From the NCBI GenBank assembly GCA_051251855.1, contig JBPOGI010000007.1, positions 128,001 through 192,000 of the forward strand: 64,000 nt of DNA, read 5' to 3'. A program made the translations under genes and the position numbers. The notes under the pieces are model-generated. The model was not told where the DNA came from, searched no databases, and saw only the letters and a list, made by a program, of their open reading frames with translations. Shown here piece after piece: positions 62,578 through 64,000 of this stretch. Source of the stretch: Roseibacillus sp. Its GTDB lineage: Bacteria > Verrucomicrobiota > Verrucomicrobiia > Verrucomicrobiales > Akkermansiaceae. The stretch's first letter is position 1. Every line of letters begins with the position of its first letter.

Positions 62578-64000
62578 TCAGCCCAAGTCAGGCCGACCGT
62601 AAAGCGTATAGCCTGTCGAATCATCGACCTGAACATCGAAAATCTCGCCAGTCATACGCTCCACATCGCCATCAAAGATGACGATTTTATTGTGCACCGT
62701 ACGTCCACTCAGCCTGGCCTTGTTCGTCTTGCTTGGCCCCTCGCAAAGGACCTGCTGACGGGTTCCAATGAGAGCAGCATTCTTAGCCGTGGTGAGTTCA
62801 TTCTGAACACGAAGAAGCTCCTGATTCCGCTCCTCCTTCACCTTCTCAGAGAGCTGCCCCTCCATCTCAGATGCCGGCGTGTCTTTGCGCTTCGAATAGC
62901 GAAAGATGAAACTATTATCGAAGCCAATATGCTTCACACAATCGACCGTCGCTTGGAAGTCTTCTTCTGTTTCGGTCGGGAAGCCCACGATGATGTCGGT
63001 AGTGATCGCCATATCAGGCCGAGCCGCTTGCATTTTTTCACAAATCGCAATGAACTTCTCATTCTTGTAAGGACGACGCATCGCCTTCAAAATCCGGTCA
63101 CTACCACTTTGCATCGGAAAGTGAATGTGCGAACAAAGCTTGGGGAGGTAGGTGAACGCCGCCACCAAATCATCCCGATAACCAATCGGATGTGGACTCG
63201 TAAATCGAATACGCTCGATACCTTCCACCTCATGCACAGCCTCTAACAACTGCACGAATGGTGACTTACCATCGACCTTAGGAAACTCGGTTCGGCCATA
63301 GAGATTTACAATTTGCCCCAGCAAAGTAATTTCCTTCACCCCTTCGTCACGAAGGTGCTTCACCTCATCGACAATCTGGGTGATGGGACGCCCCCGCTCC
63401 TTTCCTCGAGTGTCTGGGACGATGCAAAAACTACAACGCATGTTGCAACCTTGCATGATGCTCACGAAAGAACTCGCCCTCTTCTCAGCAGAAGGGACAT
63501 GGTCACGGATCGTATTCTGGCTTCCGTCTTCCTCTTCAATATCGACCAGCCCCTCAGAAACAGGCTTAGGTTTACCGTTACTGCCCAAAGGACGAATGTG
63601 AACTTCTTCTTCCACTCGCGAGGTCACCATCTCAGCTCCGACCTCATCCATCCGACCCACCAGACGAGTTTTGAGAATCCCATCCACATGGTGAAAAACT
63701 CGGTGATACTTCTGAGTCCCCACCACGACATCGAGATGAGGGATCCTATCAAAAAGCTCCGCTCCTCGGCTCTGAGCCATGCAGCCCATAAATCCGTAGA
63801 CTACATGGGGCCGCTCCTCGCGGTGCTTCCCCATCATCCCCATCTTGCCCAAGGCCTTTTGCTCCGCCTGATCCCGCACCGAGCAGGTGTTTACCAGAAT
63901 GGCATCGGCATCGGTTTCATCCTTCGTCAGAGTGTAGCCTCCGTCCACGAACTCACGAGCAACCTGCTCGGAGTCGCGTTCGTTCATCTGTCATCCGTAG
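62578..64000 (-). CDS. miaB: tRNA i6A37 methylthiotransferase MiaB, 5'-partial, with in-frame UGA at the conserved Cys (candidate selenocysteine)
   Basis: YG-UGA-QMNERDSE, NTCSVR, GCMAQ, CNMRCSFC radical SAM motif, TSPHP, DIIVGFP, TRAM domain. Confidence 0.95.
63947..63979 (-). promoter_or_regulatory. Candidate SECIS element of miaB
   Basis: ACGCG-ACUC-CGAGCA-[GGU]-UGCUCG-U(bulge)-GAGU-UCGU; upper stem begins 20 nt and the loop 26 nt after the UGA. Confidence 0.7.

Follow-up and report, generated by a model that had tools for sequence, protein, structure and literature searches.

The DNA analysed here (the window) is a stretch of 64,000 nucleotides from Roseibacillus sp. (Verrucomicrobiota), positions 128,001 to 192,000 of contig JBPOGI010000007.1 in assembly GCA_051251855.1; with the host genome numbered G000, the window is G000:C11:128001-192000. 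At its right-hand end, on the minus strand, lies miaB, the gene for a tRNA methylthiotransferase, whose codon 11 is an in-frame TGA that aligns with a conserved cysteine (Cys) and is followed by a hairpin resembling a selenocysteine insertion sequence (SECIS). The TGA is predicted to be read as selenocysteine (Sec, U). The complete gene has 481 codons and a TGA stop codon at 62580..62578 on the minus strand. The window edge falls 7 nt upstream of the in-frame TGA, and the first seven codons and two bases of the eighth (23 nt) lie past it, with the start ATG at G000:C11:192023..192021. The features of the locus, in window coordinates, are as follows.

62578..64000, minus strand: in-window part of the miaB coding sequence, from translation and profile matches.
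63991..63993, minus strand: in-frame TGA, codon 11, proposed selenocysteine U11, in register with the Cys of YGCQMN, which opens the conserved N-terminal Cys triad.
63985..63987, minus strand: ATG of Met13 (the M of QMN), the false start of open reading frame (ORF) callers and public annotations.
63946..63978, minus strand: SECIS-like hairpin within the coding sequence, positions 16-48 with the U of the UGA as 1, as folded by RNAfold.
63972..63954, minus strand: conserved 8-bp core of the hairpin, positions 22-29 paired with 33-40.
63962..63964, minus strand: apical loop GGU, positions 30-32, 26 nt after the UGA.
63883..63885, minus strand: codon of Cys47 (NTCS), the second conserved N-terminal Cys, aligned with residue 63 of 7mjv_A.
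63781..63783, minus strand: codon of Cys81 (GCMA), the third conserved N-terminal Cys, aligned with residue 97 of 7mjv_A.
63424..63447, minus strand: radical-SAM motif C193-x3-C197-x2-C200, within the Pfam Radical_SAM match.

The reverse complement of window 64000..63940 opens C TAC GGA TGA CAG ATG AAC GAA CGC GAC TCC GAG CAG GTT GCT CGT GAG TTC, in exact agreement with an earlier note on this DNA, which had read Y-G-TGA-Q-M-N on the minus strand. That note had also placed the true start a few codons upstream, beyond the window, and in the whole-genome sequence the frame is open for 10 codons before the TGA as far as an ATG, giving MPKVFIKTYG-TGA-QMNERDSEQVAREF with the TGA in the context Y-G-U-QMNERDSE. 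Read in this way, MPKVFIKTYG-U-QMNERDSE is the canonical N-terminus of MiaB. The ORF lister gives only a 469-aa ORF (62578..63987, minus strand) that begins at the ATG two codons past the TGA, 63987..63985, just as the note had said of its ORF track. Public collections behave alike, with entries of 469 aa for Sec forms and 481 aa for Cys forms; since gene callers truncate the product to 469 aa, the N-terminal annotation is wrong in about fifty species, an error that a curated MiaB selenoprotein model would correct.

Protein identity was determined with C read at the TGA position. The product scores 448.9 bits against the NCBIfam MiaB equivalog TIGR01574 (cut-off 355.3) and stays under the cut-offs of the MtaB and RimO models (316.5/357.05 and 296.3/356.95), and the rest of the gene is intact, as had been claimed. 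Pfam places UPF0004 (PF00919) at residues 3-102, Radical_SAM (PF04055) at 187-361 and TRAM (PF01938) at 419-477, and among solved structures the best match is Bacteroides uniformis MiaB 7MJV (E = 8e-91). Cys or Sec occurs at exactly three positions of the N-terminal domain, U11, C47 and C81, which face Cys 27, 63 and 97 of chain 7mjv_A in an ungapped N-terminal alignment. According to the available text of a review, three cysteines conserved in the N-terminal domain of methylthiotransferases ligate the auxiliary [4Fe-4S] cluster, which is the site of methylthio assembly (PMC5372745). The identity of the 7MJV ligands was taken from the alignment together with this statement, and on that basis the earlier proposal holds that the TGA occupies the Cys of GCQMN, one of the three ligands. 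Two of the triad (C47 and C81) are Cys and the first position is UGA, so that the triad is complete only if the UGA is read as Sec or Cys. Compared with Cys-type MiaB (TIGR01574; B. uniformis 7MJV-7MJZ), the protein has the same three domains, the CxxxCxxC motif and the second and third N-terminal Cys, and differs in that the codon of the first N-terminal ligand is UGA with a SECIS-like hairpin and not UGC or UGU.

The genome contains a single miaB. Its other methylthiotransferase is RimO (L015:1501-2862, minus strand, G000:C6; TIGR01125, 466.3 bits), a paralogue with the same domain plan and auxiliary cluster but with no in-frame stop and with a normal Cys (SLGCAKN) at the position that matches the UGA of miaB; the exchange for Sec is therefore specific to MiaB within the same genome. 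The partner gene miaA is present at C1:704847-705650 (TIGR00174, 217.8 bits, cut-off 148.65). Beside these features, an extra acidic linker of about 40 residues (residues ~108-165, window ~63520..63700, minus strand) separates the N-terminal and radical-SAM domains. It does not align to 7MJV (query 108-165 against chain 123-141), which has about 40 residues fewer between the domains, and distant relatives therefore match Roseibacillus-type MiaB in two pieces (1-130 and 159-480).

Codons around the TGA were compared in 48 Sec forms and 33 Cys forms. The peptide (M/V)P(K/R)VF(I/L)KTYG of the ten codons before the TGA is kept in the 48 Sec forms, with two to four synonymous codons at most positions, and a near-invariant peptide with synonymous variation indicates that these ten codons are translated in frame with the rest of miaB. 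This bears on the reading of the UGA as a real stop, in which the ten codons would be a leader peptide, possibly a regulatory one, and MiaB would begin at Met13 and lack its first ligand. Such a reading has an in-frame ATG two codons past the TGA in its favour, and public gene callers give exactly the 469-aa product that it predicts. The Met13 ATG is, however, the M of the universal QMN, found in 81 of 81 Sec and Cys forms, with no special restart signal; its presence in both forms alike makes it part of the conserved motif and not a dedicated restart site. The upstream codons, moreover, keep the N-terminal peptide of MiaB with synonymous variation only, a protein started at Met13 would be without one of three conserved ligands, and the TGA is limited to selB-positive genomes and always accompanied by the hairpin (see below). 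Termination at codon 11 is thus extremely unlikely.

Downstream of the TGA the synonymous sites behave differently in the two forms. At codons +8 to +11 the Sec forms have GAG (48/48), CAG (48/48), GTT (46/48) and GCT or GCC, whereas the Cys forms have GAG 17 or GAA 15, CAA 19 or CAG 14, GTC 22, GTT 7 or GTG 4, and GCC 16, GCG 11 or GCT 3. These codons are frozen only in Sec forms, with the same amino acids in both, and codons +4 to +7 vary freely in both. As a separate observation, the Gly codon just 5' of the UGA is GGA or GGG only in all 48 Sec forms, and Cys forms also use GGC (12) and GGT (5); a purine may be preferred before a Sec UGA, a pattern confounded by the relatedness of the sequences.

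The codons frozen in Sec forms fall within the hairpin, whose sequence is ACUC-CGAGCA-GGU-UGCUCG-U-GAGU with an upper stem of 6 bp (CGAGCA/UGCUCG). RNAfold reproduces the hairpin that had been noted, with its GGU loop 26 nt after the UGA: the minimum free energy (MFE) structure of window 63993..63944 (minus strand) is a bulged helix of -19.2 kcal/mol (z = -2.57), a stability equalled by 1 of 200 dinucleotide shuffles. The published bacterial SECIS (bSECIS) model, as given in the legend to Fig. 2 of PMC13188914, has an apical loop of 3-9 nt, an upper stem of 4-16 bp, a G in the first two loop positions, a distance of 16-37 nt from the UGA and an MFE <= -7.5 kcal/mol. With its 3-nt loop, GG, 26 nt and -19.2 kcal/mol, the miaB hairpin lies inside all four constraints published in that model (PMC13188914, as far as its legend goes). 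The GGU loop is invariant in 48 of 48 Sec forms. A resemblance to the apex of Escherichia coli fdhF, stated in the earlier note, was verified in NC_000913.3, where the TGA is codon 140, GGUUGCAGGUCUGCACC lies downstream and GCAGGU starts 15 nt after the UGA; the GCAGGU apex is common to both hairpins. A search of Rfam with cmscan (E <= 10, L013:2350-2560) returned only chance-level matches to TLS-PK6 and osmY, which says little, the content of bacterial SECIS models in Rfam being unchecked.

Base pairing was counted over the 8-bp core in 39 distinct Sec-form and 31 distinct Cys-form sequences. Standard pairs fill 92.3% of cells in Sec forms vs 56.0% in Cys forms, and pairing in Sec forms drops to 21.5-43.6% when the partners are slid by one to three columns. 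Pair 24-38 is C-G in 14 of the Sec sequences, U-A in 13, U-G in 6 and unpaired in 6. The hairpin covariation that the earlier note had proposed to look for is limited: the hairpin is kept in Sec forms and decayed in Cys forms, but base-pair changes on both sides occur in one of the eight pairs only. Roseibacillus Cys forms, for example, read CAA GTG at the hairpin site.

The selA, selB, selC and selD genes sought as a check on the proposal were all found in the host genome. ARAGORN predicts one tRNA-SeC(tca) of 94 nt, the sole tRNA with anticodon UCA, and SelA (455.6 bits), SelB (331.1 bits) and SelD (375.9 bits) all score over their curated cut-offs. These genes also bear on whether the UGA might be read by other means, through near-cognate tRNA-Trp or tRNA-Cys or through a code in which UGA is Trp. 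Termination at UGA followed by C is leaky, and the UGA is followed by C in all forms. Reassignment of UGA to Trp is moreover described for some Verrucomicrobiota in the available text of PMC13462651. Set against these points, miaB uses TGA as its own stop codon, anticodon UCA occurs solely in the 94-nt tRNA-SeC, the codon aligns with Cys and not Trp, and the TGA is accompanied by a hairpin and by selB, neither of which passive read-through would need. The TGA gene end, the Cys alignment and the sole UCA-anticodon tRNA led us to reject a UGA=Trp code, and read-through without Sec is, taken as a whole, very improbable.

Alternation between UGA and Cys codons in relatives had likewise been suggested as a check, and it is found. 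In 61 related genomes a miaB match occurs in 59, and 12 of these have exactly one in-frame TGA. Among 31 loci inspected from these genomes the codon is TGA in 12, always at the YG-C-QMN codon, and TGC or TGT in 19. A wider set of 80 species-level loci from named assemblies (Roseibacillus, Oceaniferula, Haloferula, Luteolibacter and metagenome-assembled genomes, MAGs, of Akkermansiaceae), which overlaps the 31-locus set and is not additive to it, has TGA in 47, TGC in 29 and TGT in 4 at the same codon, or 47 TGA vs 33 TGC/TGT. Cys forms that are 92% identical to the protein of the host genome occur in the same genus, in Roseibacillus persicicus and R. ishigakijimensis. In the 61-genome sample selB is present in 12 of 12 genomes with a TGA in miaB, and the TGA does not occur in any of the 31 genomes that lack selB; another seven, of the same family, have selB and yet carry Cys-MiaB.

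The same counts address the possibility of a pseudogene or of an assembly or sequencing error, since a lone in-frame stop near the 5' end resembles a fresh nonsense mutation or a base-call error in one genome. Forty-seven further species-level assemblies, produced in many studies, share the TGA at this codon, and the gene, the genome's sole miaB, is otherwise intact and scores over the MiaB equivalog cut-off. Reads with TGC or TGT at this codon would have pointed to an error; Logan contigs of two seawater runs span the TGA with no other letter listed, which agrees with the assembly and is a weak test, as these are contigs and not raw reads, are possibly the source of the assembly and are not independent of it. 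The contigs of a further run stop short of covering the TGA, and in those of another a relative about 89% alike spans it at a depth of 4-6 with no difference listed there. An error or a pseudogene has a negligible probability and is ruled out by the 47 other assemblies together with the pattern of selection.

A careful maximum-likelihood tree of 80 MiaB rows (IQ-TREE; Cys/Sec residue masked as X, locus L070 dropped, midpoint-rooted) implies 7 changes between Sec and Cys (5-95% bootstrap range 7-7), at least 6 of them forced by well-supported branches. Two TGT forms (L079 and L088; 631-687) are nested among the TGA sisters L082, L084 and L086 and retain the hairpin sequence; they look like recent Sec-to-Cys conversions. 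Several Cys forms nested in Sec clades suggest Sec-to-Cys reversions, with the direction of change depending on the midpoint rooting. Such reversion is described as rare in bacteria in the available text of a 2026 review (PMC13188914), and the alternation in miaB adds apparent cases. In L070, a MAG, the miaB frame is interrupted again by a stop or TGA, 236 codons past its Sec codon (631-633), which is why this locus was left out of the tree.

In a sample spread evenly over the phylum (301 genomes, 210 matched), a TGA in miaB occurs only in the host genome, among the 150 of 210 matches listed. The home family is represented in this sample almost solely by Akkermansia, so it does not contradict the 80-locus set. 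As far as sampled, the Sec form looks confined to marine members of this family.

On the evidence of the sequences, there is a genuine, conserved Sec/Cys polymorphism at a position of MiaB that is an Fe-S ligand by homology, coupled to a bona fide SECIS-like element. We put the probability at about 90% that the UGA at codon 11 of miaB is decoded as Sec through hairpin-directed SelB, with an intact, full-length MiaB as the product. Several points weigh against this conclusion. Base-pair covariation is thin, with one of eight pairs changed on both sides and three pairs invariant, and the covariation score is only modestly above that of shuffles (0.117 vs 0.091; 4 of 500 shuffles score as high). 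The case for an RNA structure consequently rests mainly on the freezing of synonymous sites and on how Sec and Cys forms differ. Conservation of the peptide DSEQVA by itself accounts for some of the pairing, because Cys forms still pair at 56%. The hairpin is also imperfect in some Sec forms: among the 39 distinct sequences, pair 26-36 is A.C in 10, pair 24-38 is unpaired in 6 and pair 23-39 is unpaired in 6. The host genome is among those with 23-39 unpaired, and the lower stem in this genus uses a bulged-U register instead. The sequences are related, and the counts of loci overstate their independence, with the tree giving about 7 events. Finally, we infer Sec at the UGA, a selenolate on the cluster (Fe-Se ligation) and any catalytic consequence of selenium from genetic signals, and the ligand role from Cys homologues, and an experimentally shown selenolate ligand on the [4Fe-4S] cluster of a radical-SAM enzyme was not found in the literature searched.

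If the UGA is decoded as Sec, the ribosome would begin translation at the upstream ATG, ten codons before the UGA. The hairpin after the UGA would recruit SelB carrying Sec-tRNA(Sec), UGA-11 would be decoded as Sec, and the product would be a full-length MiaB of 481 residues. By homology, Sec11, Cys47 and Cys81 would hold the auxiliary [4Fe-4S] cluster of the N-terminal domain. The methylthio group would be assembled on this cluster and then transferred to C2 of N6-isopentenyladenosine at position 37 (i6A37) in tRNA.

Sec might also be inserted for mainly regulatory ends, with the UGA and SECIS acting as a gate that couples the levels of MiaB and of 2-methylthio-i6A (ms2i6A) to selenium supply or tRNA-Sec status, and with no gain in cluster chemistry. 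Codon 11 is near the 5' end, where a failed insertion is cheap, and seven Sec/Cys switches suggest nearly interchangeable forms. The tRNA-Sec reads a codon starting with U, and that of the host has A36-A37-A38, which makes a feedback loop conceivable; i6A37 is reported in E. coli tRNA-Sec in the available text of PMC5699536. The Sec, however, sits on a metal-ligand position and not a neutral site, as is usual where Sec serves in catalysis or as a ligand. The RimO of this genome has a cluster of the same type but retains Cys, so that either a benefit or a gate would have to be specific to MiaB. A mainly regulatory role is, on these grounds, unlikely. A more tentative proposal, for which decoding as Sec is the premise, is that in marine Akkermansiaceae a selenolate ligand might alter the chemistry of methylthiolation, for instance through redox potential, O2 tolerance or the methylation, consumption and rebuilding of the cluster, together with a feedback between selenium and anticodon modification. 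The feedback could arise because synthesis of MiaB would need tRNA-Sec, itself of the class that MiaA and MiaB modify. In its boldest form, selenium in place of sulfur would be handed on, with a methylseleno-adenosine in tRNA as the result; we consider the proposal as a whole doubtful.

Decoding of codon 11 as Sec would place miaB with selenoprotein genes that use SelB and a SECIS within the ORF, of which E. coli fdhF is the prototype: the UGA aligns with Cys, the small loop starts with GG/GU and the apex is GCAGGU. The Sec of formate dehydrogenase FdhH binds molybdenum. Like FdhH, MiaB would have Sec at a metal-ligand position, predicted here from homology, and the metal centre would be [4Fe-4S] and not molybdenum or nickel. 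Radical-SAM selenoproteins listed in the available text of PMC13188914 are TIGR04167 (rSAM_SeCys, GxxU) and TrsS (NF045646), in which Sec is predicted and which are different families of unknown function. Neither is among the 24 NCBIfam families matched by the MiaB protein (E <= 0.001), and no selenoprotein-specific NCBIfam model for this MiaB was matched. In contrast to TIGR04167 and TrsS, the enzyme and reaction are known here, and the Sec is on the ligand position of the N-terminal auxiliary cluster.

No report of a Sec-containing MiaB or methylthiotransferase was found in the literature, in a search that left subscription journals mostly outside. Terms for MiaB and methylthiotransferase are absent from the accessible parts of the selenoproteome reviews PMC13188914 (whose supplements, perhaps with further families, were not covered) and PMC9312934, and from the accessible part of bioRxiv 10.1101/2022.07.06.499078; the selenoprotein tables of the two reviews have no entry for radical-SAM methylthiotransferases. 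Sec-MiaB is very probably an uncatalogued selenoprotein family.

Whether the auxiliary cluster is a sacrificial sulfur donor or a carrier is debated, according to the available text of PMC5372745. If codon 11 is read as Sec, a natural replacement of Cys by Sec on a cluster ligand would provide a ready-made selenium probe for extended X-ray absorption fine structure, 77Se nuclear magnetic resonance and Mössbauer comparisons. Sec and Cys forms that are 92% identical within one genus would make clean comparative biochemistry possible. A radical-SAM methylthiotransferase would also join the selenoproteome, and its hosts would be marine heterotrophs with an aerobic life, whereas the Fe-S-linked selenoproteins predicted so far are mostly those of anaerobes.

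Three other genes of the host genome have an in-frame TGA with a similar hairpin. SelD, of the Sec type, has one in SSCAG-U-ASKLS (L129:91-93; G000:C7:93151-93153, plus strand) with the hairpin ACGCA-GGUCU-UGCGU, its loop 32 nt after the UGA, and is itself a candidate selenoprotein. A 905-aa FdhA-like molybdopterin oxidoreductase of the formate dehydrogenase type (Pfam Molybdopterin, Molydop_binding, Fe4S4 and others) has one in CSRA-U-HAP (L127:1075-1077; G000:C1:1403243, plus strand), with GGUCGCC-GGUCU-GGCGGCC 18 nt downstream. A 119-aa protein of the ArsC family has a TGA at its N-terminal redox Cys position (YHYPN-U-GSSKNA; L128:34-36; G000:C9:312528, plus strand), with CCUUGGC-GGUC-GCCGAGG 23 nt downstream. 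The loops of all four hairpins (miaB, SelD, FdhA-like and ArsC-like) open with GGU, 18-32 nt after the UGA. A genome-wide scan for an in-frame TGA with a GG-loop hairpin was far too permissive, yielding 1036 candidates from which the FdhA-like, ArsC-like and MiaB genes were picked by eye, and is no census of the selenoproteome.

Just past the window edge, upstream of miaB, is a gene for a 203-aa protein (L013:2655-3266, minus strand) with a signal-peptide-like N-terminus and the C-terminal sequence ...MRFYF, which by eye resembles an outer-membrane beta-barrel. Between this gene and miaB lie a strong terminator-like hairpin and a T-run, from which it follows that miaB probably has its own promoter.

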